Below, in pieces: positions 5,531 to 51,355 of a stretch of DNA of 59,914 nucleotides. The stretch is from Candidatus Omnitrophota bacterium (GTDB lineage Bacteria; Omnitrophota; Gorgyraeia; Gygaellales; Profunditerraquicolaceae), in the NCBI GenBank assembly GCA_043807505.1, contig JAZDFW010000038.1, positions 1 to 59,914 of the forward strand. The letters run 5' to 3'. The translations under genes and the position numbers were made by a program. The notes under the pieces were generated by a model. The model was not told the origin of the DNA. It did no database searches and saw nothing but the letters and a program-made list of their open reading frames with translations. Every line of letters begins with the position of its first letter. The stretch's first letter is position 1.

Positions 5531-5635
5531 TAACCCCAAATTTTGCCTGCCCGCCTATGGCGGGTGAAGCAAAATTTGCCCCGAAGGGGTTGCGCAACAA
5601 AATCCGACGAGGATTTTGTTGGTTTCGCAAGGTAA
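5531..5635 (+). repeat. TAA-bounded nested-hairpin element, left-type module (unit A1)
   Basis: TAA-CCCCAAATTTTGC[CCCGCCtatGGCGGG]GCAAAATTTG-CCCCgaaGGGG-...CAACAAAATCCgacgaGGATTTTGTTG...GCAAGG-TAA. Same module order as the copy after hisA (49184-49273, opposite strand). Confidence 0.7.
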
Positions 5636-5798
5636 TCCCGGGTTTTACACACACTATTTTGTGCAGTTGCAAAATTTGGGATACCCCGCAAAGCCGGCCA
5701 AATTCTCGTCGAATTTGACCGTGCGGCCCCTCGCTATACCTAAAGGTAGGCTACGCACTCGCTCGGGGCGGATTTTTCTAACGCAAAATCCGGGATAA
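5633..5798 (+). repeat. TAA-bounded nested-hairpin element, right-type module (unit A2), MITE-like
   Basis: TAA-TCCCGGGTTTTAC...GCAAAATCCGGGA-TAA with imperfect terminal inverted repeats. By hand alignment, 63/67 and 37/40 positions are identical to the inverted copy at 35181-35316. Carries a 23-nt internal insertion relative to that copy. Confidence 0.8.
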
Positions 5799-7046
5799 AT
5801 ATTTACGTGGATCCGTAATCTTACCGGTAATTGCGGAAGCCGTAACCGTTGCAGGCGATGCTAAATAAATAAATGCCTCTGGGTTTCCCATGCGGCCTTT
5901 AAAATTCCTATTAGCAGAAGAAATAACAATTTCCCCATCCGCGGGAACCCCGTTATGTGTACCGACGCATGGCCCGCAGCCAGGTGTCAAAACTACAGCG
6001 CCTGAGCTAACAAACACGCCAATAATCCCTAACTTTAAAGCTTCCTGAAGTATTTCCCGCGAACTCGGAGCAATGATAAACTTTACTCCCTTAGCAACTT
6101 TTCTGGATTTTAGAATCGATGCGGCTATTTTCAAATCATGGATTCTACCATTAGTACAGCTACCTAGGTAAGCCTCGTTGATTTTTATGTTTTTTAATTC
6201 CCCTACAGGCACAGCGCTATCTACATTATGCGGACAGCTTACTTGAGGAACTAACCTAGAAATATCATACTCCAAAATTTTTGAATATAAAGCATTTTTA
6301 TCGGCAATAACCGGATTTATTTTTCTCTTACTTTTGACGCGCGGGCTTAGCCAGAAAAGAGTTTTTTCATCTACCGGCATAAAACCTGCCTTTGCCCCCA
6401 TTTCAACCACCATATTAGATATAGTAAAACGCCCATCCATATCCAGCTTATCTATTACCGGGCCAGAAAACTCAATTGCCTTATAAGTGGCGCCGTCTGC
6501 GCCAATTTTAGTAATTATATAGAGGATAATATCTTTGGCAAAAATTCCTTTGGGGATTTTCCCTGTAATTATTATTTTAATCGTCTCAGGAACCTTTAAC
6601 CAGTTCGACCCTGTGGCAAGTGAGACCGCTAAGTCAGTCGAACCTACTCCCGTAGAAAAAGCGCCCAGCGCCCCATATGTGCAAGTATGCGAATCCGCGC
6701 CAAAAACCAGGTCCCCGGGAAGTATCCGGCCGGATTCAGGGATTACTTGATGGCAAACGCCGCAACCAATATCATAAAACATAGTCTGATATTGCGAGTA
6801 AAAATCGCGCATTTTTTTATGTACGCGCGAAACACCCTCACTAGGAGAAGGCGCGCTATGGTCTATGACCATACAAAATTTAGTTTTTAACTTTTTTGTA
6901 CCAAGCTCTTTTATTCTGTCGATAATAATTGAAGAGGTACCATCTTGCCCCAAGGCAAAATCAATTCTACACAAAGCAAAATCGCCGGCTTTTAAATCAC
7001 GGCCGGCATGTTTGCTTAATATTTTTTCAGCAATTGTCTTCCACAT
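5778..7046 (-). CDS. aconitase-family large subunit (LeuC/HacA type, 422 aa)
   Basis: GADSHTCTYGALGAF, LGSCTNGR and PGCGPCVG Fe-S/active-site motifs. The last 5 codons plus the TAG stop lie inside repeat unit A2. Confidence 0.8.
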   Translation of the reverse strand: MWKTIAEKILSKHAGRDLKAGDFALCRIDFALGQDGTSSIIIDRIKELGTKKLKTKFCMVIDHSAPSPSEGVSRVHKKMRDFYSQYQTMFYDIGCGVCHQVIPESGRILPGDLVFGADSHTCTYGALGAFSTGVGSTDLAVSLATGSNWLKVPETIKIIITGKIPKGIFAKDIILYIITKIGADGATYKAIEFSGPVIDKLDMDGRFTISNMVVEMGAKAGFMPVDEKTLFWLSPRVKSKRKINPVIADKNALYSKILEYDISRLVPQVSCPHNVDSAVPVGELKNIKINEAYLGSCTNGRIHDLKIAASILKSRKVAKGVKFIIAPSSREILQEALKLGIIGVFVSSGAVVLTPGCGPCVGTHNGVPADGEIVISSANRNFKGRMGNPEAFIYLASPATVTASAITGKITDPRKYLSRILR

Positions 7047-7067
7047 AAGAATTTTTAAGTTTAGTAT

Positions 7068-8243
7068 TTAGAGTTTATTTACCCATTCCTCTATTCTATC
7101 CATTCCCTTTTTTAATTGTTCTAAATTTGTGGCAAAACTTATGCGTATAAAATCATTCCTTCCAAAACTATCCCCCGGTATTACCGCGACAAGCGCTTGG
7201 TCAAGCAGGCGCTCAGCAAAAGTCAATGAATCAAGCTTAGTCTTTGATATATCGGAAAATATATAAAATGCTCCTTCTGGGAATACAGGGTTTATTTTTT
7301 TTATCGCTTTTAATCTTGAATAACAATAATCCCTTCTTTTCTGGAACTCGCAAGCCATGGACTTCGAGAAATCATCTCCCGCCTTAAGGGCGGCAAGAGC
7401 TGCTTTTTGACTAATGGAAGCCGGATTAGAAGTCGAATGATCCTGGAATTTTGAAATATTTTCGATAATATCCGCCGGCCCTGCTAAATAACCAATGCGC
7501 CAGCCTGTCATAGAATGGCTTTTAGACAAACCATTAATAGTAATAGTTAAATCGAATATCTCTTTACTAGAGGATGCGATAGATATGTGTTTAGCAGGAT
7601 CAAAAATAATTTTTTCATAAATTTCATCCGAAATGACAAAAATTTTCTTTGCTACGCAGATTTTGGCAATTTCCTTAAGTTCATCTTTTGTATAAACACA
7701 ACCTGTCGGGTTTGATGGGCTATTTAATATCAGCACTTTAGTTTTTGCGCTGATATATTTTTCTATTTCATTGATTTTAACCTTAAATTTATCCTGGGGG
7801 AGAGTGGGTATAAAACGCGGGGTGCCTTCGCATAGCCAAACCATTTCAGGGTAACTTACCCAATAAGGAGACGGGATCAAAACTTCATCGGTTTTGTTAA
7901 TTAAAACAAAAAGTGTATTAAATATACTGTGTTTTGCTCCGCAAGAAACAACTATTTGGTTTGGATTATATTCGAGGTAATTGTCTTTTTTAAATTTTTC
8001 GCAAATCGCATTTTTTAATTCTAAGATGCCGGTCGAGGGGGTATATTTAGTAAACCCGGATTTAATCGCTTCAATCGCAGCATCCTTTATAAAATCAGGA
8101 GTATCAAAATCCGGTTCACCAGCGGCCAAGGATACTACATCAACACCTTCGGCCTTTAATTTTTTTGCTTTTGAAGTAATCCCAAGCGTAGAAGAAGGGT
8201 TTACTTTTTTTAATCTTTCCGCTAAGCGTGTATCTATGCGCAT
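7068..8243 (-). CDS. aspC: class I PLP-dependent aspartate aminotransferase
   Basis: SPSNPTG and the NGLSKSHSMTGWRIGY Lys-PLP motif. Confidence 0.8.
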   Translation of the reverse strand: MRIDTRLAERLKKVNPSSTLGITSKAKKLKAEGVDVVSLAAGEPDFDTPDFIKDAAIEAIKSGFTKYTPSTGILELKNAICEKFKKDNYLEYNPNQIVVSCGAKHSIFNTLFVLINKTDEVLIPSPYWVSYPEMVWLCEGTPRFIPTLPQDKFKVKINEIEKYISAKTKVLILNSPSNPTGCVYTKDELKEIAKICVAKKIFVISDEIYEKIIFDPAKHISIASSSKEIFDLTITINGLSKSHSMTGWRIGYLAGPADIIENISKFQDHSTSNPASISQKAALAALKAGDDFSKSMACEFQKRRDYCYSRLKAIKKINPVFPEGAFYIFSDISKTKLDSLTFAERLLDQALVAVIPGDSFGRNDFIRISFATNLEQLKKGMDRIEEWVNKL

Positions 8244-8270
8244 GAGAAGAAAACATTGAAAAATTTGGGT

Positions 8271-8828
8271 TTAAAGAGGCCCTCTTTCCTTCCTAAAGAT
8301 ATTCTTTAAGCCTCCCAAAAATTTCTTGGGCGGCTTCTTAACAATTGGCGGCTGCTCTTGCTGAACAGCTGTTTGGGTTTTATGCTTTTGTACCTCACTA
8401 ACCGTCTCAGGCTGATTAGTTTCTATTGGGTGTACAGCTTTTTCTTTTTTAACCTTTTTTATTTCCCTTTTTTTAATTTCAGTTAACTCCAGAATAACCA
8501 TTTCCGCGTTGTCACCGCGTCTTTTACCAAGATTCAAGATTCTGGTGTAACCGCCTATTCTTTTTGTAAAACGCGGGGCTAGCTCGGCAAACAAAGCGCT
8601 CACCAGGCGATGGTCACCAAGTATTCTATAAGCTTCTCTTTTTGCTGCCAGCGTATTATCCTTACCTAAAGTGATAAGTTTTTCCACTAAAGGCTTAACC
8701 GCTGCGGCCCTTGCCTTAGTAGTCTTTATGCTCTGATGCAAAAGTACACTCATGGCAAGGCTCTTTAAAGTTGCTTTGCGCCAAGTGCTAAACCGGTTCA
8801 ACTGATGCCTTAATTTCTTATGTCTCAT
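8271..8828 (-). CDS. rplQ: 50S ribosomal protein L17 with about 60-aa basic/Pro-Gln-rich C-terminal tail
   Basis: MRHKKLRHQLNRFSTWRKA... bL17 N-terminus. Last gene of the alpha operon, after rpoA. Confidence 0.9.
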   Translation of the reverse strand: MRHKKLRHQLNRFSTWRKATLKSLAMSVLLHQSIKTTKARAAAVKPLVEKLITLGKDNTLAAKREAYRILGDHRLVSALFAELAPRFTKRIGGYTRILNLGKRRGDNAEMVILELTEIKKREIKKVKKEKAVHPIETNQPETVSEVQKHKTQTAVQQEQPPIVKKPPKKFLGGLKNIFRKERGPL

Positions 8829-8831
8829 ATC

Positions 8832-9824
8832 CTATGCCTTTTTTAATTTTCTAGGGTCTATCTGCATCCCTAAAGTTAATCCCATCCCTGCAAGAAGTTC
8901 CTTAATCTCAGTTAAGGATTTTTTTCCAAAATTCTTAAAAGCTAACATTTCATCTTCACTTCTCTTGACTAAATCAGCGATAACCTTAATATTCGCCTCT
9001 CTTAAACAATTAGAACTTCTTACGGAAAGTTCAAGCTCGGAGATCGGAAGCCTTAATTTCTCATAAAGAGCAGCTTCCTCTTTTGTCATCTCCAGCTCCA
9101 GTTCTTCCTCTTCCTCGGGCATTTGTCCAAAGTTAACAAAGATATCCAAATGGCGCTGCAGAATATTAGACGCATATAATAAAGCGTCTTTTGGAGTTAT
9201 AGCTCCATTGGTGAATATCTCTAATATTAGTTTATCGTAATCCGTCTTCTGCCCTACCCGGGTATTCTCAATAGAGAAATTTACTTTTTTAACCGGGCTG
9301 AAAATCGAATCAATCGCAATCGAACCAATTGACGCATCTTCTTTCTTATTTAACTCAGCAGGCACATAGCCCCTTCCCTTTGCCACTTCCATCTCAACAT
9401 GGAATTTAACGTCTTTAGTTAAAGTAGCAATATGTAAATCGGGATTAATTACCTCTATTGTTTCATCCGCTTCGATATCGCCTGCCTTAACTTCTCCTTT
9501 TGTATCTTTTTTGATATAGACTGTTTTAGGAATTTTTGAGTGAGAGCTTAAGACGATATTCTTGATATTCAAAATTATTTCTGTCGTATCTTCCAATACT
9601 CCGGGGATCGTGGAAAATTCATGCTGCACGCCGTGGAATTTTACGCTCGTTATACTGCTTCCTTCTATAGAAGAAAGCAAAACCCTTCTTAACGAATTAC
9701 CTAAAGTGATGCCATACCCTTTTTCAAAAGGAGCGGCAATAAATTTACCATAGGTATTGCTATAAGCTGCTTCATCACATTCAAGCCTCTTTGGTAACTG
9801 AAAATCTCTCCATTTTATGCCCAT
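8832..9824 (-). CDS. rpoA: DNA-directed RNA polymerase subunit alpha
   Basis: 330 aa with a conserved N-terminal domain and a C-terminal LELSVRSSNCL helix-hairpin-helix. Confidence 0.95.
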   Translation of the reverse strand: MGIKWRDFQLPKRLECDEAAYSNTYGKFIAAPFEKGYGITLGNSLRRVLLSSIEGSSITSVKFHGVQHEFSTIPGVLEDTTEIILNIKNIVLSSHSKIPKTVYIKKDTKGEVKAGDIEADETIEVINPDLHIATLTKDVKFHVEMEVAKGRGYVPAELNKKEDASIGSIAIDSIFSPVKKVNFSIENTRVGQKTDYDKLILEIFTNGAITPKDALLYASNILQRHLDIFVNFGQMPEEEEELELEMTKEEAALYEKLRLPISELELSVRSSNCLREANIKVIADLVKRSEDEMLAFKNFGKKSLTEIKELLAGMGLTLGMQIDPRKLKKA

Positions 9825-9889
9825 ATATTTTTCTCCGTTTTTGTTTTAGGTTAATTTCCTAGCGGCGAACATGCCGCATCAACCAGTAT

Positions 9890-10519
9890 TTACTTTGAAT
9901 ATAATTCTACGATTAATTGTTCCTGAATAGTGCTTGAGATATCTTCTTTCTCCGGCAACCTTGTAACTTTCGCCTTTAATGCCTGCTGGTCAAGCTCAAG
10001 CCACGAAGGAACAGATCTATCTTTATTTAACTCTATGTTTTCTTTAATTTTTTTCAAGCCCTTCTCTTTTGCCTTTATCTCAATCACATCATCTTTATCT
10101 ACCGAAAATGAAGGAATATTTACGCGCCGAGAATTAATATAGACAAAATTGTGCCTTACAATCTGCCTACCGCCTGCTCTTGAGGTAGCAAGGCCTAATC
10201 TAAACACTACATTATCCAGCCTTCTTTCCAGAAGTTGCAATAACACGCGCCCTGTAACACCTTTTGATTTCGAGGCAGTTTGAAAATATCTGCGGAATTG
10301 CCTCTCCAAGACTCCGTACATCCATTTGACTTTTTGTTTTTCCTTCATCTGCAGTCCGTAGTTAGAGAGCTTCTGCCTTCTACCTTCTCCGTGCTGGCCG
10401 GGAGCAAATGCCCTTTTAGTCATAGCGCATTTCTGGGTATAACATTTATTACCTTTAAGAAATAATTTCTCTAAACTACGCCGGCATAATCTACAAACAG
10501 CATCTGTATATCGAGCCAT
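9890..10519 (-). CDS. rpsD: 30S ribosomal protein S4
   Basis: MARYTDAVCRLCRR... uS4 N-terminus. Position in the alpha operon. Confidence 0.95.
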   Translation of the reverse strand: MARYTDAVCRLCRRSLEKLFLKGNKCYTQKCAMTKRAFAPGQHGEGRRQKLSNYGLQMKEKQKVKWMYGVLERQFRRYFQTASKSKGVTGRVLLQLLERRLDNVVFRLGLATSRAGGRQIVRHNFVYINSRRVNIPSFSVDKDDVIEIKAKEKGLKKIKENIELNKDRSVPSWLELDQQALKAKVTRLPEKEDISSTIQEQLIVELYSK

Positions 10520-10524
10520 TAAAT

Positions 10525-10914
10525 TTACACTCTCCTTTTCTTTTTAGGACGACATCCGTTGTGCGGTATAGGAGTTACATCTTTAATAGAAGTAATTACA
10601 AGGCCTGCGGCTTGCAATGCCCTAATTGCTGATTCACGCCCAAACCCAGGGCCTTTTACCTGCACCTCAATCTCTTTAAGCCCTATTTCTTTTGCTTTTC
10701 TTGCCGCATCTGTCGCGGCAAGCTGAGCCGCAAATGGTGTGGATTTTTTTGAACCGCCATAACCGACAATACCGGGAGTGGACCAAACCAATACATTGCC
10801 CTGTTTATCGGTAATCGTTATTATCGTATTATTAAAACTTGCCTGAATATGGGCAATACCGGTCGTAATCCCCTTGGCAATTTTTTTCTTTTTATTTTTT
10901 TCTTTTATAGCCAT
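10525..10914 (-). CDS. rpsK: 30S ribosomal protein S11 (start at [11 protein letters not shown])
   Basis: uS11 core [21 protein letters not shown] 10914-10912 is preceded by AAGGAGG. The 40-aa extension in the ORF track reads through the structured element. Confidence 0.9.
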
Positions 10915-10940
10915 TAAATTTTTTCCTCCTTGCACAGTAA

Positions 10941-11064
10941 GTGCACACCGGCCTATCCAATTAGGCCGGGTGTTTGCCCACAAAGGGCACACTGGCGCAA
11001 TTCTCCGCCAAAGGGCGTATGCCGAACCATCCAATTGGTTCGGGCCGATAAGCGCCAGGTGTGC
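10941..11064. repeat. 124-bp GC-rich structured palindromic element between rpsM and rpsK
   Basis: Ends are GTGCACACC...GGTGTGC. Twin hairpins CCGGCCT-atccaatt-AGGCCGG (10948-10969) and CCGAACCA-tccaat-TGGTTCGG (11022-11043) share a loop and a 3' G bulge. A long stem joins GCACACTGGCGC (10987-10998) and GCGCCAGGTGTGC (11052-11064). Confidence 0.6.
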
Positions 11065-11073
11065 TATATTACT

Positions 11074-11502
11074 TTATTTTCCAGCGCTCTTTGCGCCAGG
11101 AGCAGCAGCTTTCTTAGGCGCTGTTTCGGCTTTCTTAATTACCGCCATACCGCTTCTTCGCTTCCCTTTTCTAGTCCTTGCGTTTGTTCGTGTTCGCTGC
11201 CCTCTCACCGGAAGGCCTTTCTTATGGCGCAACCCTCTCCAAGAACCAATGTCCATTAATCTTTTTATGTTTTGCGAAATATCCCTGCGCAAATCTCCTT
11301 CAACCCTATAAGTACCTTTCTGTAAAATATTAGTGATACGGGAAATCTCCTCTTCATTTAACTCTTTTGCGCGCTTATCAGGGCTAATCCCCGCTTCTTT
11401 AAGAATAACGCCTGACAAATGCCGGCCGACTCCGAATAAATAAGTAAGCGAAATCTCAATTCTTTTTTCTTTTGGGATGTCTACACCTAAGATCCTGGGC
11501 AT
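11074..11502 (-). CDS. rpsM: 30S ribosomal protein S13 with Ala/Lys/Pro-rich C-terminal tail
   Basis: [26 protein letters not shown] uS13 N-terminus. Confidence 0.95.
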
Positions 11503-11519
11503 AATCTATTTACTCCTTT

Positions 11520-11633
11520 TTATCCTTGTCTCTGTTTGTGTTTTGGATTAATGCAAATTACCCGCACAATCCCCCTTCTTTTAATAATTTTACATTTATC
11601 GCAGATTTTTCTAACAGACGATTTTACCTTCAT
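11520..11633 (-). CDS. rpmJ: 50S ribosomal protein L36 (37 aa)
   Basis: Below the ORF-track size cutoff. Hand translation: [37 protein letters not shown]. Lies between infA and rpsM as expected. Confidence 0.9.
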
Positions 11634-11634
11634 T

Positions 11635-11853
11635 TTATTTCACCCGAAAAGTTATTCTCCCGCGGCTCAAATCATAAGGAGAAAGCCCTAATTTTACTTT
11701 GTCACCCGGCAAAATTCTAATAAAGTTCATTCTCATTTTTCCCGAAACATGCGCAAGCACTATATGGCCGTTCTCAAGCTCCACTCTAAACATCGCGTTT
11801 GGTAATGCCTCAACTACTTTACCTTCGGTCTCAATCAATTCTTCTTTTGCCAT
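11635..11853 (-). CDS. infA: translation initiation factor IF-1
   Basis: 72 aa S1-like fold: [30 protein letters not shown]. Confidence 0.95.
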
Positions 11854-11877
11854 ACAATCCTTTTTTTAGCCCCAGAG

Positions 11878-12621
11878 TTATTTAGTCAATATTTCCGTGC
11901 CGTGGTCTGTAATTGCTACTGTATGTTCAAAATGTGCCGAGGCAAGGCCGTCTTCTGTTACTGCTGTCCAGCCGTTATCAAGGATCTTACTTTCCCAAGT
12001 GCCCATGTTTACCATCGGCTCAATAGCCAATACCATTCCGCTTTTTAACACCGGGCCTGAGTGTGCTTGGCCAAAATTGGGAATCTCCGGTTCTTCATGT
12101 AAACTTCTGCCTATACCATGGCCTACAAACTGCCTCACTACCGAAAATCCGTTGCGTTCTACATAATTCTGAATCGCATAAGAGATATCAAATAAATGGT
12201 TTTGCGCCCTAGCCTGCTTTATTCCAACGCCTAAGGCAGCCTTAGTAACATCAATTAACTTTTTTAATTTTTGGTCAATCTTACCTATGCCTATAGTAAC
12301 CGCGGCATCGGAAAAATAACCTTCATATTTGATGCCCACATCAAGGCTTAAGATATCGCCTTCTTTTAATTTTCTTGGCCCCGGGATTCCATGCACTATT
12401 TCTTCATTAATCGAAGTGCAGATACTTGAGGTAAAGCCCTTGTAGCCCTTAAAAGCAGGTTCGGCATTTTCTCGCCTAATCAACTCTTCAGCCAACTTGT
12501 CAATTTCGCTTGTCGCAATCCCAACATCTATAAATTCGCCTAAACTATTCATTACCCTGGCCAAGATTCTTCCCGATATCCGAAGTTTTTCTAAGTCTAG
12601 TTCAGACTTTAAAGGAATCAT
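11878..12621 (-). CDS. map: type I methionine aminopeptidase
   Basis: 247 aa with metal-ligand segments DVGIKYEGYFSD, GHGIG and EPM. Confidence 0.9.
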   Translation of the reverse strand: MIPLKSELDLEKLRISGRILARVMNSLGEFIDVGIATSEIDKLAEELIRRENAEPAFKGYKGFTSSICTSINEEIVHGIPGPRKLKEGDILSLDVGIKYEGYFSDAAVTIGIGKIDQKLKKLIDVTKAALGVGIKQARAQNHLFDISYAIQNYVERNGFSVVRQFVGHGIGRSLHEEPEIPNFGQAHSGPVLKSGMVLAIEPMVNMGTWESKILDNGWTAVTEDGLASAHFEHTVAITDHGTEILTK

Positions 12622-13267: not shown

Positions 13268-13273
13268 ATAAAA

Positions 13274-15630: not shown

Positions 15631-15631
15631 C

Positions 15632-16000: not shown

Positions 16001-16012
16001 TTACCCTTAAAT

Positions 16013-16564: not shown

Positions 16565-16574
16565 TTTATTTCCT

Positions 16575-16970: not shown

Positions 16971-16996
16971 CTTTTTTATTCTCCTTAAAACTTTAA

Positions 16997-17182: not shown

Positions 17183-17183
17183 A

Positions 17184-17738: not shown

Positions 17739-17740
17739 AT

Positions 17741-35180: not shown

Positions 35181-35316
35181 TTATCCCGGATTTTTCGATA
35201 GAAAAATCCGCCTCGAGCGAAGCGAGAGGCCGCTCGGTCAAATTCGACGAGAATTTGACCGGCTTAGCGGGGTATCCCAAATTTTGCCTGTCGAAGGCGT
35301 GCAAAATTTGGGATTA
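35181..35316 (-). repeat. TAA-bounded nested-hairpin element (unit B), inverted copy of unit A2
   Basis: On the minus strand: TAA(=rplL stop)-TCCCAAATTTTGC-acgccttcgacag-GCAAAATTTGGGATACCCCGCTAAGCCGGTCAAATTCtcgtcGAATTTGACC...CGGATTTTTctatcgAAAAATCCGGGA-TAA. Terminal inverted repeats are TCCCAAATTTTGC / TCCCGGATTTTTCG. Confidence 0.8.
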
Positions 35317-35735: not shown

Positions 35736-36260
35736 TCATGTTTTTTTCTGTTTAATTTGATCTAAACAAATAACAAATTTCTTTAATACCTGATTTAAAA
35801 CTATAACTAATCCGGATATAGGCGCATTTAAAGTCCCGACTACCTGTGCCCTTAAAACTTCTTTAGACGGCAACTTTGCCAAAGCTTCAATGCCGCTTTT
35901 ATCTAAAAGTTTATCCTTTAGCAAGCCGCCTTCTAATTGTAATTTATCATGGTCTTTTTTAAAATTGCATAAAATTTTTGAGGCTTCAACAGGTTCTTCC
36001 TTAATAAAAACAAAGCCGCAAGGCCCTTCTACTGCCTTAATTATTAATTCTAATCCGGAGCTTTTCAAGGCACGCCTGGCAACGCTATTTTTTACTACAA
36101 AAAGATTGCTCTTAGCGCCCTTTAAAGACTGCCTTAAAGTAGTAATATCAGGGCTCGATAAACCAGAATAGCCCAGAACAAAAAAACTGTCTGAGCCTTT
36201 CAAATTCTCTTTGATTTTATTTTCAGAAACCTCTTTAACTACTAAACCGATCTTTTTCAT
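35736..36260 (-). CDS. rplJ: 50S ribosomal protein L10
   Basis: uL10 family. Lies between rplA and rplL, with its start overlapping the rplA stop. Confidence 0.9.
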
Positions 36261-38539: not shown

Positions 38540-38659
38540 AAAAGCACGGGCTTAGCGGGCCTAAAAGATAAAAAAACCACCATTAAGAATTTTATTAAAT
38601 TCTTTTTTAAATTGTTTTAAATTCCCTAAAGTTATTTTGGGGATTTATATAGACAGTGA

Positions 38660-38688: not shown

Positions 38689-38695
38689 CCTTTTT

Positions 38696-39535
38696 TTATG
38701 GTTTTGTGCCTGCCTGCCTGCCGGTAGGCAGGCAAGAACTTAATTTAGCAAAATCATCCAGGCTAAGGCGCTCGGGCCGTACGTTGGGGCTAATCTTAAA
38801 TTTAGAAAAAAAATTCTCTAAATTTTGTTGTGGCAGGACTTCCTTAAGGCTGTTTTTTAAAGTTTTCCTTCTCTTGTTAAAAGCAGCCCTGATAATTCTA
38901 AAAAATAATTCCTTATCCTTTACTTTAACAGGCGCTTTTTCTCTTAGGGAAATTTTTAAAAAAACGGAATCCACGCCAGGCACAGGATAAAAAGAATTTC
39001 TTTTAATCGGAAAGAGTATTTTCGGTTGTGAAAAATACTGCACAAAGCATGATATCGAAGCGTAATCTTTTGAACCGCATGAAGCAATTAATCTTTGCGC
39101 AAATTCTTTTTGAACCGTCAGGTACAAACAATCGATTTTTTTGCGGAATTCAAAAACTCGTTCAATGATTGGTGTTGAAATATAATAAGGAATATTGCCG
39201 AATATCTTTATCTTGTTCTTAGTATTAGCGGAGTTAATTTTAATTTTTTTAAAAAACCGCTTGAAATCAAATTTTAATATATCAGTTTGGATTATCTCAA
39301 TATTATCGTCATTTTTTAGATTCTCTTTTAATAAAGGCAAAAGGCGCTGATCAATTTCCAATGCGTAAACTTTTAAACAATTCTTGGCAAGTAGCTGAGT
39401 AAATTCTCCGCTGCCTGAACCAATCTCAAGCAACGTGTCTTGCGAATTAAAATTACACGCGGAAATAATTTTTCTCTGGATATTCTTATCTATAAGGAAA
39501 TTCTGTCCTAAACTTTTTTTTGGTTTAATGTGCAT
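38696..39535 (-). CDS. rsmA: 16S rRNA (adenine1518/1519-N6)-dimethyltransferase RsmA/KsgA
   Basis: SLGQNFL, SAM motif EIGSGSG, and NIPYYIS. Confidence 0.92.
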   Translation of the reverse strand: MHIKPKKSLGQNFLIDKNIQRKIISACNFNSQDTLLEIGSGSGEFTQLLAKNCLKVYALEIDQRLLPLLKENLKNDDNIEIIQTDILKFDFKRFFKKIKINSANTKNKIKIFGNIPYYISTPIIERVFEFRKKIDCLYLTVQKEFAQRLIASCGSKDYASISCFVQYFSQPKILFPIKRNSFYPVPGVDSVFLKISLREKAPVKVKDKELFFRIIRAAFNKRRKTLKNSLKEVLPQQNLENFFSKFKISPNVRPERLSLDDFAKLSSCLPTGRQAGTKP

Positions 39536-40443: not shown

Positions 40444-40444
40444 T

Positions 40445-43274: not shown

Positions 43275-43285
43275 GAAAGTTAATA

Positions 43286-45481: not shown

Positions 45482-45496
45482 AACTTTTAAACTCCC

Positions 45497-45790
45497 CTAA
45501 CTTACTGCGCCTTGAATCTTCTTTATATAAGCAATACAATTTTTATCAATTTCTAATTTAACATTTTCATCTATCCTCAATACCACGGTTTTATCTTTGA
45601 CATTCACTATTGTGCCGTGGATACCTCCGGAAGTTACTACTTCGTCATTTTTGTTAAGGTTACTAAGCATCTTCTGATGCTCTTTTTCCTTTGATTTCTG
45701 CGGCCTAATCAACATAAAGTAAAAAATAACAAAAATTAGTATTAACGGCACTAAGTTTAGTATCGGATTAACTGCTTGTGCTTGCGGCAT
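45497..45790 (-). CDS. yajC: preprotein translocase subunit YajC
   Basis: 97 aa, single TM, then LIRPQKSKEKEHQKML...GDEVVTSGGIHG-type motif. Confidence 0.85.
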   Translation of the reverse strand: MPQAQAVNPILNLVPLILIFVIFYFMLIRPQKSKEKEHQKMLSNLNKNDEVVTSGGIHGTIVNVKDKTVVLRIDENVKLEIDKNCIAYIKKIQGAVS

Positions 45791-46036
45791 TTATTGCTCC
45801 TTTCGAACCTTTTTTGCTAAACTTTTAACTGTTGCAGAAAGCTGTGCTCCATTTTTTACCCAATGATCCAGGCGTTCTATTTTTATTTTTGTTTCTCCGG
45901 ATACAGGATTATAAAATCCCAATTCTTCAATAAACCTGCCGTCTCTACCGGTGCGTTGATCAAAAACCGTAATGCGAAAATGCGGACGATTTTTTGGATT
46001 TTTACCTATCCTTCTTAAACGAATATGTACTGCCAT
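45791..46036 (-). CDS. rpsP: 30S ribosomal protein S16
   Basis: [28 protein letters not shown] bS16 N-terminus. Confidence 0.93.
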
Positions 46037-46081
46037 TTTTTTTAAAACCTCCCTTTTAACCTGCTTTTGCTTGAGTCAAAT

Positions 46082-46109
46082 AGTATACCACTATATTTTA
46101 TAATTTCAA
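46082..46109 (-). promoter_or_regulatory. candidate sigma70-type promoter for rpsP-yajC-secDF
   Basis: Minus strand TTGAAA-16 nt-TATACT, about 45 nt upstream of the rpsP ATG and directly after the trpE stop. Confidence 0.4.
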
Positions 46110-47609
46110 TTAATAATTGCTTCCATTAATTGCTTCCATTAATGCCCGTGCCTTATTCACTGATTCAAGATATTCTTTTTCCGGAATAGAATCAGCAACC
46201 ACCCCTACCCCTGCCTGCACATAACCAAAATGATTTTTTACAACAATGGTCCTGATGATAATACAAGTATCCATGTTATGCGAAAAACTAAAATAACCTA
46301 CGCATCCGGCATAAGCTCCGCGCCGGGTATTTTCTAATTCATCGATGATTTCCATCGCCCGGATTTTCGGGCTGCCGGATACCGTGCCTGCAGGAAAACA
46401 TGCCCTTAAACAATCATATATATCAAATTTTCTATTTAAAATGCCTGAGACATTTGAAACAATATGCATTACGTGAGAATAACGTTCAATTGACATAAAT
46501 TCATCAACTTCTACCTTACCGTTTTTACAAACCCTGCCCAAATCATTCCTACCTAAATCAACGAGCATAATATGCTCTGCCTTTTCTTTAGCGTCACCCA
46601 AAAGCTCTTGCTCTAACCGCCTGTCCTCATCTTCAGTCTTGCCTCGGGGCCGCGTGCCGGCAATCGGGCGAGTTTGCACAATACCATCAACACAACGCAC
46701 TAAGAGCTCCGGCGAAGAACCAACGAGTGCAAAATCCTTAAGGTTTAGAAAGAACATATAAGGCGAGGGATTAATACTACGTAAATTCCTGTATATTTCA
46801 AATGGCGCTTTATTAATCCTAACTTTAAATCTCTGAGAAGGAACTACCTGGATAACATCACCTTTTCTGATATAGGCCTTAGCATCTCTAACCATTTTCT
46901 GAAATCCGGATTTACTATAGTTGGAGGTTACTAAAGGCGGACGTTTGGTTAATGCAGGCTTTATTTCCTTGTTAACACATGATTCCGTAAGTTCCTTATG
47001 AATTGCTTCAATTTTTGCGATTGCTTTGGAATAAATCTTTGACAATTCCCTGCTTGAAAATGCTTCTTTTTTTTGAGCTAATATGGTATTGGTGACAATT
47101 TTAATGGTGTGGTTAACATGGTCGAATACCAAAATATTATCGGTAAGCATAAAGACTGAATCAGGAAGTTTAAGTTCGTCGGGATTCTTATCGGGAATTT
47201 TTTCAAAAAACCTTACCATATCATAACCCATAAAGCCAACTAAACCTCCGCAAAAACGCGGTAATCCTTTTATCATTACAAATTTAAAATTCTGCATTAT
47301 TTTCTTAATTTCGTCCAAAGGATCGGTTTTTGTAATAAATTTACGGGCTGCCTTTTGGCCCGTATAAATGATTTCAATATCTTTTAGTTTACTTTTAAAA
47401 ACAATAGCCGGATTACTTCCTAAAAAAGAATAGCGGGCAATTTTCTCCTGGCCTTCGACAGATTCAAACAGAAACGAATAATCGCCTTTTTTGATTTTTA
47501 AAAAGGCCGATACCGGCGTATCCAAATCAGCATTAATTTCTTTATACACAGGTATAACATTGCCTTTTTTGCTTAATTTTAAGAATTCTTTTAATGAAGG
47601 GCAATACAT
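46110..47609 (-). CDS. trpE: anthranilate synthase component I (chorismate-utilising enzyme)
   Basis: FLFESVEGQEKIARYSF N-terminal regulatory motif, SPELLVR, and GAYAGCVGYF. Confidence 0.75.
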   Translation of the reverse strand: MYCPSLKEFLKLSKKGNVIPVYKEINADLDTPVSAFLKIKKGDYSFLFESVEGQEKIARYSFLGSNPAIVFKSKLKDIEIIYTGQKAARKFITKTDPLDEIKKIMQNFKFVMIKGLPRFCGGLVGFMGYDMVRFFEKIPDKNPDELKLPDSVFMLTDNILVFDHVNHTIKIVTNTILAQKKEAFSSRELSKIYSKAIAKIEAIHKELTESCVNKEIKPALTKRPPLVTSNYSKSGFQKMVRDAKAYIRKGDVIQVVPSQRFKVRINKAPFEIYRNLRSINPSPYMFFLNLKDFALVGSSPELLVRCVDGIVQTRPIAGTRPRGKTEDEDRRLEQELLGDAKEKAEHIMLVDLGRNDLGRVCKNGKVEVDEFMSIERYSHVMHIVSNVSGILNRKFDIYDCLRACFPAGTVSGSPKIRAMEIIDELENTRRGAYAGCVGYFSFSHNMDTCIIIRTIVVKNHFGYVQAGVGVVADSIPEKEYLESVNKARALMEAINGSNY

Positions 47610-47610
47610 T

Positions 47611-47937
47611 CTATTTTATCTTTCTGTAGAAACACGACCTATTGCCGGTGTGACAGGCAACCCCAAGCTGACGCACCTTAATTAAAAGCGCATCCATGTC
47701 GCAATCGTAATTAATATTTTTGACAAATTGAAAGTGGCCTGAAGTCTCTCCCTTAACCCAATATTCTTTTCTCGAGCGTGACCAAAAACAAGCCTTGCCT
47801 AATTTGAGCGTGCGTTTCAATGATTCCTGATTCAAGTAAGCAAGCATCAAAACCTCACCTGTCTTATAATCCTGAATTATCGCGGGAATCAATCCTTTTG
47901 AGTCATACTTTAAATTTTTTAGATTTAATTTAGTCAT
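47611..47937 (-). CDS. hisI: phosphoribosyl-AMP cyclohydrolase (monofunctional HisI)
   Basis: 108 aa, GLIPAIIQD...CFWSRSR...CDMDALL...CHTGNRSCF. Confidence 0.9.
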
Positions 47938-48689
47938 AATCTTATTGCTACTCCCTTATTTGCCAGATATTCTTTTACTTGTTTAACCGAATATTCCTGA
48001 TAATGAAATATTGAGGCTGCTATGGCAGCATCAGCGCCTGATTTTGTAAATACATCGTAAAAATGCTCTAACTTCCCCGCGCCGCCTGATGCGATTACCG
48101 GGATATTTACTGAATCAGTCACTGCTTTAGTAAGCGCTAAATCATAACCATCTTTTGTGCCGTCATAATCCATACTCGTTAAGAGTATCTCTCCTGCCCC
48201 TAAATCAGCAGCATGTTTTGCCCATTCTATTGCATCAACACCTGTGGCAGTCCTGCCTCCATTAATAAAAACCTCCCAATTGTCTTGTTCTTTTTTGGCA
48301 TCAATTGCCACTACAATACATTGGCTGCCGAATTTTTTTGCAGCATCACTGATTAATTCAGGAAACTTTACCGCAGCAGTATTTATTGATACCTTATCAG
48401 CGCCTGCATTCAACAGATCTCTTATATCATTAATATCCCTGATGCCGCCGCCAACTGTAAAAGGCATATATATATTAACTGCAATTGCTTCAACTAAATC
48501 AATTAAAGTTTTTCGCTTTTGGAAACTGGCAGTAATATCCAAAAATACCAGCTCATCAGCCTGCCCGGCATCGTAGATCTTAGCCGCTTCTACCGGATCG
48601 CCAGCATCTTTTAAGCCAAGAAATTTAATGCCTTTTACGACACGGCCTTCTTTAATGTCTAAGCAAGGAATGATACGCTTGGTCAACAT
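47934..48689 (-). CDS. hisF: imidazole glycerol phosphate synthase cyclase subunit
   Basis: [20 protein letters not shown] HisF N-terminus. Confidence 0.93.
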
Positions 48690-48706
48690 TTTTTTAGTCG
48701 CAAGTA

Positions 48707-49153
48707 TTATTTTGCTTTCTTATATAAATATTCCTTTAATAAATCCCAAGTCTTTTTACCGACTTTTCCGTCAACCGTTAAATTATTGGCTTGCTGAAAT
48801 GCTTTAATCGCATCCTTGGTTTGCTTACCCATTTTCCCGTCAACAAGGCCAAGCGTGTAACCGGCGTTTTTTAAAGCAATCTGTATCTTCTTGACAGTTG
48901 GACGGCTTTTAACTTCCGGGATGATTTTCTTCGCGGTAACTTCTCCTTCTATCTCCATTCTATTTTGTTTCAATGCTTCTTTTAGGTTATTTATCAGCTC
49001 ATCCCTTGATTGCACCTGTGCTTCTAAAGCAGCAACCTGATTTTGTAATCCTTGTATTTCCTCGCTTCTTTGTTTACCGCGGCTCGTCGCGCATCCGCTT
49101 AATGATGCAATAAAAATAAATAAAACTGCTAACACAACTCCTTTTTTGCTCAT
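48707..49153 (-). CDS. lipoprotein with coiled-coil segment and C-terminal peptidoglycan-binding (PG_binding_1-like) domain
   Basis: Signal peptide with lipobox [51 protein letters not shown] matches the PGB repeat pattern. RBS AAGGAGGGG. Confidence 0.75.
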
Positions 49154-49170
49154 TCTCCCCTCCTTACGGT

Positions 49171-49186
49171 TTATCCTATAGGATTA
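49171..49186. repeat. 16-bp perfect palindrome TTATCCTATAGGATTA (TAA-TCC-TATA-GGA-TAA on the minus strand), minimal right-type element ends
   Basis: Sits immediately after unit H, in the same relative position as unit A2 after A1. Retains only the TAATCC...GGATAA termini. Confidence 0.5.
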
Positions 49187-49273
49187 CCCCGGCATGCACG
49201 AAAAATCTCACCGAGATTTTTCGGCCGGCCCTACGGGCAAAAAATGCTTGCTTCGCAGGCATTTTTTGGGTTA
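49184..49273 (-). repeat. TAA-bounded nested-hairpin element, left-type module (unit H)
   Basis: Minus strand: TAA(=hisA stop)-CCCAAAAAATGCctgcgaagcaaGCATTTTTTG-CCCgtaGGG-ccggc-CGAAAAATCTCggtGAGATTTTTCG-tgcatgccgggg-TAA. Collinear with unit A1. Confidence 0.7.
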
Positions 49274-49993
49274 TGAAATTTTTAAAGCCTGTGGCAAAGT
49301 AAACCTGCCTTCATACAAAGCCTTCCCCACAATTATACCTATTAATCCCGCTTTTTCCAATGATTTAAGCCTGCGTAAATCATCCAAAGAAGAAATACCG
49401 CCTGAACCAATAACCTCCAATCCTGTTTCTTTTAAAAAACTTTTAATTGCTTTAATATTCGGCCCTTTTAAGGTCCCGTCTTTAGCAATGTCCGTAAAGA
49501 TTACCTGCTTAAATCCTATTTTCTTTAAAGCGCAGCCAAACTTCAAAGCATCGACACCTTTTAATTTAGTATCCCAGCCCTTAATTGAGACTATTCCGTC
49601 TTTAGCATCAATACTAACAATAATCCTGTCTTTAAATTGCTTAAAACATTTTTTTAAGAAACTCTCGTCTTGCGCTGCCCTTGTTCCCAAAACAACGCGG
49701 CTAACTCCGCAATTAAGCAATTCTTTTATTGTTTCAACTTTTCTTACTCCTCCCCCAAATTGCACTTGCGCATCAATATTTTTTACAATCTCTTTTACAA
49801 TGTTTAAATTTAGCGGATTTCCGGTTAAAGCGCCATCCAAATCAACTACATGAATAAACTTAGCGCCCTGGCTTACCCAATGCTTGGAGGCCTTTAACGG
49901 ATCCTTTGAGTAAATTTTTTTTTGATTAAATTTTCCCTGCACCAATCTTACAACGCAGCCATCCTTAATATCAACTGCCGGAATAATTAACAT
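49271..49993 (-). CDS. hisA: ProFAR isomerase HisA
   Basis: MLIIPAVDIKDGCVVRLVQGKF HisA N-terminus. Confidence 0.93.
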   Translation of the reverse strand: MLIIPAVDIKDGCVVRLVQGKFNQKKIYSKDPLKASKHWVSQGAKFIHVVDLDGALTGNPLNLNIVKEIVKNIDAQVQFGGGVRKVETIKELLNCGVSRVVLGTRAAQDESFLKKCFKQFKDRIIVSIDAKDGIVSIKGWDTKLKGVDALKFGCALKKIGFKQVIFTDIAKDGTLKGPNIKAIKSFLKETGLEVIGSGGISSLDDLRRLKSLEKAGLIGIIVGKALYEGRFTLPQALKIS

Positions 49994-50601
49994 TATATCT
50001 CCACAAAATTTCTTAGCATCCTCAAGCCTGCATCTTGGCTTTTTTCAGGATGGAACTGCACGCCAAATACATTATCTTTCCAAACAACTGCCGGAAAATC
50101 TATTCCGTAATTACATGTTGCCGCAATAACTTTTTTCTCAGAAGGCTGCGGATAATACGAATGGCAAAAATAAACATAAGACTTATCCGGGATATCTTTC
50201 AATAAAGGGCAATTTCTTGAGGTAATATTTAATTGATTCCAGCCTATCTGCGGCACTTTAATTCCTTTTTTTGCGCTAAATTTCTTTACTTCGCCTTTTA
50301 ATATACAGAGGCCGGAAATATTTTTTGCTTCCTGGCTTTTTTCAAACAAAAGCTGCATACCTAAACAAATGCCTAAAAATATTTTTTTGTTCTTTATGGC
50401 ATCGTGAATTGCCGAAACTAAATTACGCCTTTCTAATTCAACCATTGCATCATTAAAAGCGCCTACCCCGGGCAAAACAAATTTTTGAGCTAATTTAAAA
50501 TCATCCGGGTTATTAGTGACAAGGGCCGCGGCGCCCATGCTCTCGAGTGCCTTGGCTACACTGTGGATATTGCCCATACCGTAATCAATAATGGCAATCA
50601 T
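49993..50601 (-). CDS. hisH: imidazole glycerol phosphate synthase glutaminase subunit
   Basis: Class I amidotransferase GICLGMQLL and the HPEKS triad region. Confidence 0.93.
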   Translation of the reverse strand: MIAIIDYGMGNIHSVAKALESMGAAALVTNNPDDFKLAQKFVLPGVGAFNDAMVELERRNLVSAIHDAIKNKKIFLGICLGMQLLFEKSQEAKNISGLCILKGEVKKFSAKKGIKVPQIGWNQLNITSRNCPLLKDIPDKSYVYFCHSYYPQPSEKKVIAATCNYGIDFPAVVWKDNVFGVQFHPEKSQDAGLRMLRNFVEI

Positions 50602-51207
50602 CTAATCTATTACACCTTTTGTTGATGGAACACCTTGCCGGCGGGGATCAATTTGCGTGGCTAGATCTAAAGCAATACCTAAAGCCTTAAAGATAGGTTC
50701 AACAGTTGCGTGTAAATCCTGGCTTGGATTTTCTAACTTTACATTAAGATTCATGCCCAGTTGTTTAGCAAATGCCTCAAAGAAATGCTCTGCATATTTA
50801 AAATTGTATCCATCTTGAGTTTTAGGATGTTTCAGGGCAGCCTCTCCAACAACTAATTTATATGAACCCCGGCCGCTGATATCAACTGTTACATTTGCAG
50901 TTACCTCTTCCATGGGCACTGAAGCAAAACCGATTCTTTTTATGCCGGCCTTATCAAGCAAAGCCTCTTTAAAAACTTGGCCTAAAACAATCCCTAAATC
51001 TTCATTAGTATGATGTATATCTACCTTAAAATCAGCCTGATTAGTCTTAATATCCAAATCAAAATGGCCCCAGAAAGCAAATAACTCCAACATATGGTCG
51101 AGAAATCCGATACCTGAATTTATCTTGGCTATCCCGCTGCCGTCAATATTAAGTTTAATTGTGATATCGGTTTCTTTACTTTTTCTTGATTTTCGCGCTT
51201 CTCTCAT
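50602..51207 (-). CDS. hisB: imidazoleglycerol-phosphate dehydratase (start at MREARKSRKSKETDI)
   Basis: SRKSKETDITIKLNIDGSG IGPD N-terminus. ATG 51207-51205 is preceded by AAGGAGA. The longer ORF-track start is a TTG inside the repeat region. Confidence 0.9.
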   Translation of the reverse strand: MREARKSRKSKETDITIKLNIDGSGIAKINSGIGFLDHMLELFAFWGHFDLDIKTNQADFKVDIHHTNEDLGIVLGQVFKEALLDKAGIKRIGFASVPMEEVTANVTVDISGRGSYKLVVGEAALKHPKTQDGYNFKYAEHFFEAFAKQLGMNLNVKLENPSQDLHATVEPIFKALGIALDLATQIDPRRQGVPSTKGVID

Positions 51208-51231
51208 TTTTCTCCTTGAGCACAAAAAATT

Positions 51232-51309
51232 TTTGTTTAGCGAAATCCCGTGAGTGCACCGAAATTATCGTAGAGAATTTCGGTGTGATTACGAAACGGG
51301 ATAAACAAA
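51232..51309 (+). repeat. nested-hairpin element related to the right-type module (unit D)
   Basis: TTTGTTTA-gcgaa-ATCCCG-tgagtg-CACCGAAATT-atcgtagag-AATTTCGGTG-tgattacgaaa-CGGGAT-AAACAAA. Shares the ATCCCG...CGGGATAA termini and an A/T-tract inner hairpin with units A2 and B. Confidence 0.55.
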
Positions 51310-51336
51310 AACCTCTGGCGCTTATTATTTATTTAA

Positions 51337-51355
51337 CTCCACACTCTGTGTGGAG
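51337..51355 (-). terminator. 8-bp stem / 3-nt loop hairpin just downstream of the hisD stop (weak terminator or processing candidate)
   Basis: CTCCACAC-tct-GTGTGGAG. On the minus strand it is followed by UUAAAUAAAUAAU. Confidence 0.3.

Follow-up and report, generated by a model that had tools for sequence, protein, structure and literature searches.

The 59.9-kb window analysed here (the whole stretch of 59,914 nucleotides, contig JAZDFW010000038.1 of the Candidatus Omnitrophota assembly GCA_043807505.1) carries copies of a modular hairpin repeat that encodes nothing and that apparently represents an undescribed family of a known general kind, similar to the inverted doublets of repetitive extragenic palindromes (REPs) called REPINs and to miniature inverted-repeat transposable elements (MITEs). 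The family is mobile and currently active, copies coming and going between near-identical strains, in most cases directly at stop codons of essential genes, and we regard it with high confidence as a mobile, non-autonomous family; a preliminary description of this DNA, made from the sequence alone, had already read it as a non-autonomous, modular hairpin repeat of MITE/REP type. The best overall explanation, to which we assign a probability of roughly 0.6, is a non-autonomous, active family of the Omnitrophota mobilised by an enzyme of the HUH/Y1 type.

Mobility, at which the preliminary description could only guess, is demonstrated by three pairs of filled and empty sites between strains more than 99% identical. 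The contigs of these strains (numbered L001 onwards together with the other contigs used here) were found by exact-protein look-up and are 99.3–99.97% identical to the window. Between rplL and rpoB (site 1), L037–L040 are empty and read GAATTAAAA TAA TCAGAAGG, and the window alone is longer by 133 nt, reading AAAA TAA, then the inserted block TCCCAAATTTT...CCGGGA TAA, then TCAGAAGG. Between rplJ and rplL (site 2) the window itself is empty, as are L039–L041 (AAACA TGA TTTTAATCG), and L037, L038, L042, L043 and L082 carry an additional 131 nt (AAACA TAA TCCCAAATTTT...CCGGGA TGA TTTT). Between leuC and pilT (site 3), L047 and L048 are empty (AAATAT CTA TAATTTTTT) and their leuC product has 417 aa; the window is filled with 265 additional nt (AAATAT TTA, the block TCCCGG...GGGGTTA, then TAATTTT) and its leuC product has 422 aa.

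The preliminary description had grouped five loci of the window, here called A to E, of which A and C proved to be clear copies and D a diverged member, whereas B is only an end fragment and the membership of E is unproven. For the self-comparison the five loci were searched against the window with blastn, and repeat finding and nhmmer with a profile of 20 copies were applied; in addition, a covariance model built from the right half of the element only (R1; 100 positions, 28 pairs) was run on the window with filters off. The sole strong blastn relation among the five loci is that between A (5669–5798) and C (35181–35287), which match in inverted orientation with E=1e-23 and were returned by the repeat search as inverted repeats 93–94% identical; in the same window search B, D and E gave no significant blastn match to A, C or one another. 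The termini agree with those first described, TTA followed by TCCCGGATTTT on the left and AAAATTTGGGA followed by TTA on the right, and the small hairpins of CCC-N3-GGG type (here CCCC-TTC-GGGG) and the occurrence of both orientations (A and C are opposite) were likewise borne out. The end motif ATCCCRRNTTT occurs eight times in the window against 1.2 expected, six of the eight lying inside A and C.

Locus A (5531–5798, minus strand; 268 nt including the flanking TTA), between the leuC-like gene and pilT, is full-length, an inverted dimer with its left end at 5798 and its right end at 5531. The 20-copy profile matches it over model positions 1–229 (E=1.6e-67), and its DNA fold reaches -71.7 kcal/mol (z=-7.96 against shuffles), with additional small hairpins within the H2 loop and the final loop. 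R1 matches its left unit (5682–5798) on the plus strand with 63.0 bits (E=1.6e-14) and its right unit (5531–5648) on the minus strand with 103.7 bits (E=4.4e-25), the latter score coming from a copy that is part of the R1 training set. The leuC-like frame enters locus A for five codons and stops at a TAG (5780–5778) in the loop of the left-end hairpin. Locus C (35181–35316, plus strand), which measures 136 nt when its flanks are included and separates the rplL stop from rpoB, is a single unit plus a complete terminal hairpin; it matches the nhmmer profile with E=7.1e-34 and R1 with 80.2 bits (E=5.5e-19; minus strand, 35181–35287), and its fold has z=-7.36. Locus D (49171–49274, plus strand), between the hisA stop and the next gene, is a diverged single unit which was absent from the R1 training set and which matches the model over its whole length (47.3 bits, E=2e-10; fold z=-6.65). 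Its modules, a degenerate palindrome TCC-TATA-GGA, a long hairpin, a CCC-TAC-GGG mini-hairpin and a terminal hairpin, follow the order of the single-unit forms. The stop-codon relation put forward in the preliminary description is seen in all three: the terminal TTA of C (35314–35316) and that of D (49271–49273) are the reverse complements of the rplL and hisA stop codons, respectively, and leuC is lengthened by five codons. At the site of D, two strain contigs (L050, 1889–2034; L082, 6492–6637) hold a different element of about 125 nt, flanked on either side by TAAAC, whose 14-bp inverted repeats (ACCCCGTTAGAGAT) are perfect; hisA is one codon shorter in these contigs than in the window, and its stop codon is TGA.

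Locus B (8257–8273, plus strand; first placed at 8244–8273) is a right-end sequence of 14–17 nt, GAAAAATTTGGGTTTA, with no hairpin partner, whose TTA (8271–8273) is the reverse complement of the rplQ stop codon. It has no fold (z=+0.8) and no match to R1 or to the nhmmer profile. The right-end motif AAAATTTGGGNTWA, found three times in the window (in A, C and B) against 0.03 expected, lies exactly at the rplQ stop in B, and for this reason the locus is read as most likely a solo right-end remnant. Locus E (51235–51296, minus strand; first placed at 51232–51309), between hisD and hisB, runs from TTA and TCCCG through one AT-tract hairpin to CGGGA and TTT. It folds well (z=-4.70), and its relation to the family is not significant (R1 12.8 bits, E=0.19; no nhmmer match), so that it is at best a possible degenerate relative; the locus is identical in strains L036 and L049, which leaves no empty site for comparison. 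The contention that there is no family at all, and that the shared strings are low-complexity A/T tracts together with chance palindromes in AT-rich spacers, draws on the lack of significant alignment of B and E to other loci and on the many other, unrelated hairpins in the spacers of the same organism. Against the similarity of A and C (E=1e-23), the match of D to an independent model and the more than 50 full copies in other genomes and metagenomes it is practically untenable, and for A, C and D we consider it refuted. An 11-mer, GGCTTAGCGGG, which had been noted both in the element and upstream of tRNA-Thr, shows no further similarity around it and is read as chance, since about 500 element 11-mers were implicitly tested and some 5–15 such matches are expected.

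The basic unit of the family measures about 100–130 nt and comprises an end hairpin or palindrome (TCCCGGATTTTT-loop-AAAAATCCG), a long hairpin with outer and inner stems, a CCCC-TTCG-GGGG mini-hairpin and a second end hairpin (CAAATTTTGC-loop-GCAAAATTTGGGA). There are two end flavours, a GG-type on the left and an AA-type on the right, and the terminal inverted repeats (TCCCGGATTTT and TCCCAAATTTT) are identical at 9 of 11 positions. The long form, read from its GG-type end, begins with the left hairpin (TTA, then TCCCGGATTTTT-cgatag-AAAAATCCG), which is followed by CCTCGAGCG-ata-GCGAGAGG with tandem G.A pairs, by the long hairpin CCGC..GGACAAACTC-gacga-GAGTTTGTCC..GCGG, and by GG and a central hybrid palindrome TATCCCAAATTTTGC...GAAAAATCCGGGATTA around a small hairpin; a second long hairpin (TTGCA..CGACAAAATCC-tcgtc-GGATTTTGTCG.TGCAA) then leads to CCCC-TTCG-GGGG and the right hairpin (CAAATTTTGC-tatc-GCAAAATTTGGGA, then TTA). 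The left half is approximately the reverse complement of the right half and R1 matches both halves of every long copy on opposite strands, which identifies the long form of about 225 nt as an inverted dimer of the unit of about 100 nt.

Single-unit forms are represented by C, by the copy at the rplJ site, by L025 and by a subfamily in L011, L013, L023 and L033, and bare end palindromes by L006 and L008; all forms possess both end hairpins, the left (CGGATTTTT/AAAAATCCG) as well as the right (CAAATTTTGC/GCAAAATTTG). In L006 (3145–3177) an AAA_14/DUF4143 ATPase open reading frame (ORF) contains the bare palindrome, of 33 nt or, if TTA is counted, 36 nt, in frame within its linker, which recalls the in-frame Rickettsia palindromic elements. 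To judge from their sequences, copies look as though they decay after insertion by deletion between their own short internal direct repeats, a process which may have given rise to C and to the forms in L001, L018 and L025. The form of A in L001 is a 103-nt internal-deletion form (170 nt deleted); an assembly artefact was considered for this short allele and rejected, as the deletion junction shares fewer than 10 nt, presumably too few for a de Bruijn collapse.

The hairpins have been maintained as structures by selection that acts at the level of DNA. In the right-half alignment 97.1% of cells are paired, against 20–52% in slid controls, and compensatory double changes are present at 10 of the 28 pairs (33 cells), a level attained in none of 500 shuffles; the left half behaves likewise in the pairing test. 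As RNAalifold on the whole element mixed alternative local and long-range pairings, these tests were made on local hairpins defined by hand. Stem mismatches counted in the left-to-right orientation are equally G.T (22) and A.C (26), copies lie about as often sense as antisense to the flanking genes, and in L003 and L007 one hairpin loop is inverted in place (GACGA to TCGTC), none of which fits an RNA under selection on one strand. An RNA gene is therefore rejected, as is an intrinsic terminator, there being no T-run after the hairpins.

A cis-acting structure kept at gene ends and spread by recombination, whether at the RNA level (as a terminator, attenuator, messenger RNA stabiliser or processing site) or as a protein-binding DNA platform resembling the bacterial interspersed mosaic elements (BIMEs) of E. 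coli, would account for the strong covariation and the very stable folds (z about -7 to -8), for the conservation of sequence across the phylum, for the UNCG form retained by the mini-hairpin loop (TTCG, TCCG, TGCG) and for one orthologous site that is occupied in two species (L022 and L032). As the primary explanation we nevertheless think it very improbable, for the elements sit in either orientation between rplJ and rplL and between rplL and rpoB, where their presence varies among near-identical strains inside essential operons; nor do G.U pairs exceed A.C in the stems, terminator anatomy is missing, and the elements are inserted as blocks with defined ends at a short target. The two ideas are not exclusive, since a mobile element may also affect its neighbours.

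Read from left to right, the inserted block runs from TCCC to GGGATTA and follows TTA, TCA or (C/T)TA, with T as the next base; since AT is redundant where element and target meet, the register could shift by one or two bases. Insertion occurs between T(T/C)A and T. On the coding strand, and within this ambiguity, each of the three sites falls where the last sense codon adjoins the stop codon, to which we attribute the association with stop codons: in compact operons such a target is mostly available where a final sense codon meets TAA or TGA. A new stop is provided by the element itself, an immediate TAA when read antisense and a TAG six codons in when read sense, which leaves the genes and the downstream ribosome-binding sites intact, and copies are accordingly tolerated in ribosomal-protein and rpoB operons.

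At site 2 (rplJ) the left flank is TCA and the right TTA, from which it follows that the latter was brought in by the element. Among 28 full, non-redundant copies TTA forms the left flank 24 times and the right end 24 times, and T comes next in 21 of 26; in the same copies the orientation of TTA is fixed relative to the GG-type and AA-type ends and TAA...TAA never occurs. 5' flanks other than TTA (ATA, CTA, TTG, TAA and TCA) in no case match the 3' end; apart from the rplJ site, all five copies with such a flank are discordant. The fixed orientation of TTA, together with the unfaithful duplication at rplJ, favours mobilisation of a single strand by an HUH/Y1 enzyme over a 3-bp duplication by a DDE transposase, a 2-bp (AT) or a mutated 3-bp duplication being the less probable alternative. 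Enzymes of the IS200/IS605 and RAYT (REP-associated tyrosine transposase) Y1 types insert strand-specifically 3' of a short target and use an element-borne right end (PMC6006769). In the mechanism that we propose, an enzyme encoded elsewhere would mobilise the element in trans; it would most likely recognise the end hairpins as folded single-stranded DNA, would paste the element 3' of the short target with no true duplication, and would be of the HUH/Y1 kind, either an IS200/IS605 TnpA or a RAYT. Taken specifically, this single-strand mechanism is a tentative proposal, to which we would give somewhat less than even odds.

In the main competing explanation the element is a classical MITE that depends on a DDE transposase, either from the IS5 family (IS1031/IS427-like) or of PIF/Harbinger type; the imperfect repeats TCCCGGATTTT and TCCCAAATTTT would be the binding sites and TTA a 3-bp, or AT a 2-bp, duplication. 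IS5-group and Harbinger elements duplicate TNA or TWA, and the preliminary description had proposed a 3-bp duplication of this type. The MITE-like size and lack of ORFs agree with it, as do the symmetric ends (11–13 bp with two mismatches), the TTA on both sides in 24 of 28 copies and the exact TAA...TAA of the rplL site. Such a duplication is putative at most, since the rplJ target TCA becomes TCA...TTA in strains 99.9% identical, which makes decay of a duplication unlikely, and since the flanks are TTA...TTA in a single orientation when both would be expected from a staggered cut made symmetrically at a target that is not palindromic. The mismatch of the non-TTA 5' flanks with the 3' end is equally awkward for it, a 2-bp AT register leaves the ends unequal by 2 nt, and no gene with such ends was met near the copies, where the sole DDE fragment (in L011) is IS4/IS1634-like and so belongs to a family with long duplications. 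We therefore rate it as a real but doubtful alternative. A TA duplication of IS630/mariner type was also considered and rejected, as the two bases that precede the element at the rplJ site are CA rather than TA.

Another route would use a site-specific recombinase of the tyrosine or serine type, which would join the TTA core of a circular form to a T-Y-A target core, a mismatched core giving heteroduplex junctions that segregate to either sequence. It would explain all three sites with no extra mutation (TTA/TTA, TCA/TTA, and CTA to TTA/TTA); moreover, the end palindrome, with arms of 13–15 bp and a 6-nt centre, is laid out like a recombinase core site, a tyrosine recombinase ORF runs into the left end of one copy in L064, and L004 has a distant homologue 1.3 kb away from its copies. 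Yet the targets share only 3–4 nt with the element, the crossover would fall at the outer edge of the palindrome arms and not at their centre, the gene is nearby at only 2 of about 55 loci, and the empty alleles have no att-like half sites, so that this route seems improbable.

Several observations weigh against mobilisation by an HUH/Y1 enzyme. The insertion point is 3–5 nt from the foot of the left hairpin, with no room for a linker and guide, whereas in IS608 cleavage takes place about 19 nt from the hairpin foot with the guide tetranucleotide between (PMC6006769), and the canonical GT[AG]G foot of REPs is absent from the 20-copy alignment. Only one of the three informative sites discriminates against a 3-bp duplication, and all three also fit a 2-bp duplication of AT, a point that counts in favour of a DDE transposase. 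At leuC, where the empty allele has CTA and the filled one TTA, every model needs one substitution or polymorphism. The equal numbers of G.T and A.C mismatches are unexpected under strictly one-strand recognition, and no replication strand bias was found: the ratio of 4:1 to 4:2 in the window is not significant, and elsewhere sense and antisense are about equal.

The search for a partner enzyme adds to these difficulties. No transposase gene is present among the window ORFs, as first reported, and about 230 ORFs near copies (150 + 80), examined with Pfam, PHROGs and by inspection, include no recurrent transposase; the IS4/IS1634-like fragment, two tyrosine recombinases and two GIY-YIG genes lie near copies, with no recurrence. 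No parent insertion sequence with the same ends was found near any copy, and no autonomous tnpA/tnpB element with these ends in the 575 kb examined, a search that was not exhaustive. A local tblastn over the same 575 kb, with IS608 TnpA and E. coli RayT as queries, found one Y1_Tnp gene (L064, 2319–2822; PF01797, 57 bits; motifs NHYH, WQ and YIHQNP) on a contig with two element copies, 2.7 and 8 kb from the gene. Its closest homologues are 47–86% identical, have 164–173 aa and bear the names Candidatus Omnitrophota, Candidatus Zapsychrus or RayT in their sources. Inverted repeats of its own, 26 nt long and different from those of the element (GACCGGGTACC), enclose the gene, and the 51 kb around its homologue P0002 (L095) hold two adjacent Y1 genes and no element copy, both of which also tell against such a partner; in these two gene contexts (L064 and L095) a single-copy RAYT gene flanked by the same repeats as the element was not found. 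The RAYT-like Y1 genes (167-aa products; L064, 2257–2863; L095, 9267–10540) have their own inverted repeats (..GACCGGGTACCAATAA..), and the two in L095 stand side by side beside RHS-repeat and PemK-toxin genes. By its sequence motifs, a Y1/RAYT-like enzyme class is present in the phylum, and would be a candidate partner at most. That the element is the repeat partner of an uncharacterised, vertically inherited Y1/HUH enzyme (RAYT-like or class-3-like) specific to the Omnitrophota and the wider PVC (Planctomycetes–Verrucomicrobia–Chlamydiae) group, and hence a phylum-wide, long-lived REPIN-like replicator unusual in its much larger four-hairpin unit, its two cross-complementary end flavours and its stop-junction target, is a rather unlikely elaboration; a bolder version would have a new kind of enzyme move the element.

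Sequence-pattern, covariance-model and profile scans found copies in other genomes and metagenomes, so that the family is not confined to the window. The left-end hairpin pattern (TATCCCGGATTTT-N7-AAAAATCCG, 22 specified bases) was scanned against one genome per species (596 Gb), and gave 34 loci in 18 species-level genomes where about 0.07 were estimated by chance. Twelve of the 18 genomes are labelled Omnitrophota or Omnitrophica, four 'uncultured Planctomycetia/-ales' and two are unlabelled. The family itself is found in the 16 genomes labelled Omnitrophota or Planctomycetia, the two unlabelled metagenome-assembled genomes (MAGs; UBP15 UBA6099 and RA.bin91) having only the left-end hairpin. 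In these two (L010, 480–707; L020, 3339–3560) the hairpin is followed by a different conserved sequence of about 170 nt, which ends in a AACCCGCAT...ATGCGGGTT hairpin. Each MAG has two to five exact-pattern matches, many within about 100 nt of a contig end, and the density in the DNA examined is about one copy per 30–50 kb. The right-end 33-mer is present in 21 further metagenome contigs, while viral contigs gave no match to the left-end pattern.

Twenty copies align end to end, with a consensus of about 229 columns. They are about 90% identical to the consensus (71–92%) and have 45–49% GC, the hosts having 38–55% GC and proteins only 49–72% identical. The nearest relative of 14 of the 20 copies is in another genome, a recent burst (95–98% identity) is seen in one genome only, and a single orthologous site, that in L022 and L032, is occupied in two species. 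This pattern across hosts would reflect horizontal spread or else subfamilies that are old and were preserved because selection favoured their mobility. As first stated, the element corresponds to no named family: Rfam searches of the window at gathering thresholds gave only two tRNAs, E-value scans of A and of the canonical copy in L030 gave only far sub-threshold miRNA and snoRNA noise, and a full-text search of the literature returned no paper that ties Omnitrophota to miniature inverted or repetitive extragenic repeats.

The surroundings of some copies are of interest in themselves. In L004 (4384–5382) two full copies in inverted arrangement flank smpB, with a probable transfer-messenger RNA (tmRNA) gene just downstream, and in L075 tatA and a 180-aa ORF lie between two copies. 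At the orthologous locus beside the copies in L022 (730–1026) and L032 (1093–1458) there is a small GIY-YIG gene in one species and a gene of the 23S-rRNA-IVS-protein family in the other; L008 has a further GIY-YIG gene, 35 nt away from its bare palindrome.

The window has 40% GC, with every gene on the minus strand, and contains secE-nusG-rplKAJL-rpoBC, the S10/spc/alpha ribosomal operons, his and leu genes, alaS and recA. Its proteins are 49–72% identical to those of a contig of 'Candidatus Omnitrophota bacterium DeMMO3_15', and gene order is conserved. Around locus A (3915–7046) a pilT-family ATPase gene lies between the leuC-like and leuD-like genes, and the order leuC, element A, pilT, leuD, leuB is conserved across all strains seen.

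Other hairpin structures also vary among the strains. Between the rpsM stop and the rpsK ribosome-binding site (10931–11068), a multi-hairpin block of 139 nt and of a different family replaces 9 nt (GAAGAGTTT) of L089, and contigs L090 and L091 break there. The block is not listed in the preliminary description; its tail (ACACCCGGCC-TAATTGGATA-GGCCGGTGT..CACTTACTGTG) has a homologue in L055, where 45 nt are inserted at the rplE stop. The hairpin GACTCCACACAGAGTGTGGAGTTAAAT, which represents a third small mobile type, stands just after the hisD stop (51337–51363) and recurs at the rplE end in L056 only (6392–6418), with a compensatory change. In L040 (2759–2807; window 36257–36260) an insertion of 49 nt splits the overlapping rplA stop and rplJ start with duplication of ATGA, and its reverse complement resembles the 3' end of a tRNA or tmRNA (GGTTCGACTCCCTCTGGTCGCTCACCA). 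A perfect 24-bp palindrome upstream of recA (58320–58369) has as its counterpart a different three-hairpin array in L092 and L094. At the end of a rsmA-like gene (38690–38722; L038, 1400–1570) there is a palindromic tetranucleotide repeat, (TGCC)n/(GGCA)n, which is longer in L038, where it includes a run of N, and at which a 72-kb contig of GCA_021733565.1 seems to end. A segment of alaS (54384–54430; L092, 5069–5193) measures 47 nt in the window and 125 nt in L092, in frame (868 and 894 aa); its sequence also differs between strains, and contig L093 ends in it.

Omnitrophota are known almost only from MAGs, for which a repeat that breaks assemblies bears on the quality of assembly and binning; the covariance model and end motifs allow the elements to be masked or annotated, and their presence or absence among strains more than 99% identical makes them usable as strain markers. 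The element rewrites gene ends, adding five codons to leuC and providing the stop codons of rplJ, rplL and hisA, and its insertion is tolerated in the most constrained operons, where target and element ends together preserve stop codons and ribosome-binding sites. It is a non-coding sequence that stays about 90% identical across hosts whose proteins are only 50–70% identical. Should a Y1/HUH partner be confirmed, REP/RAYT-like systems would prove more varied than is known so far, with respect to the architecture of their units as well as to the phyla that host them.

Among known repeats, the BIMEs of E. coli and pneumococcal BOX elements share the modular or mosaic arrangement of hairpins, and these together with Correia elements, Rickettsia palindromic elements (RPEs) and bcr1 share the location between genes of operons; RPEs also supply or alter the ends of reading frames and insert in frame, as does the palindrome in L006. 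Short AT-rich targets are likewise used by the Correia elements of Neisseria (TA) and by bcr1 of B. cereus (TTTAT). The sequences are unrelated, however, and the target, ends and host phylum differ. Tourist-like and IS5-derived MITEs resemble the element in small size, imperfect terminal inverted repeats, TTA on both sides and an AT-rich target, but its TTA is orientation-specific and not always duplicated, and it has covarying internal hairpins and a unit/dimer build.

The likeness to IS200/IS605 and to PATEs, which are reportedly gene-less IS200/IS605 derivatives described by Dyall-Smith in 2011, extends to the hairpins at both ends, the two different ends and the orientation-specific flanks, and probably further to insertion 3' of a short T-rich target, with a right end that finishes in a similar tetranucleotide (TTAT after T(T/C)AT), and to the lack of a faithful duplication at the one discriminating site. 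Transposition of IS200/IS605 is said to have been termed 'peel and paste' by He in 2015. The element differs in that only 3–5 nt separate its insertion point from the foot of the hairpin, and neither a guide tetranucleotide nor a linker can be recognised.

REPINs are defined as two REPs in an inverted doublet (Bertels & Rainey 2011, PMC3116915), and a REP is an imperfect palindrome of short length that carries a conserved GT[AG]G tetranucleotide directly at its 5' foot or no more than 2 nt away, REPs being described as species-specific (PMC6006769). REP/REPIN systems typically number tens to hundreds of extragenic copies in a genome. By contrast, the unit of the element is about 100 nt with four hairpins rather than one hairpin of 20–40 nt, its hairpin feet are preceded by TTATCC, GGGG or CC and not by GT[AG]G, and its sequence is conserved across many species; it also has defined ends and inserts as a block after T-Y-A and before T, and the RAYT-like genes seen are not flanked by it. 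With the REPIN/RAYT system it nonetheless shares short extragenic palindromic units, often arranged as inverted doublets able to fold into one long hairpin, many non-autonomous copies with a presumed partner elsewhere, the maintenance of stem structure over sequence and long persistence, and a RAYT-like Y1 clade is present in the Omnitrophota.

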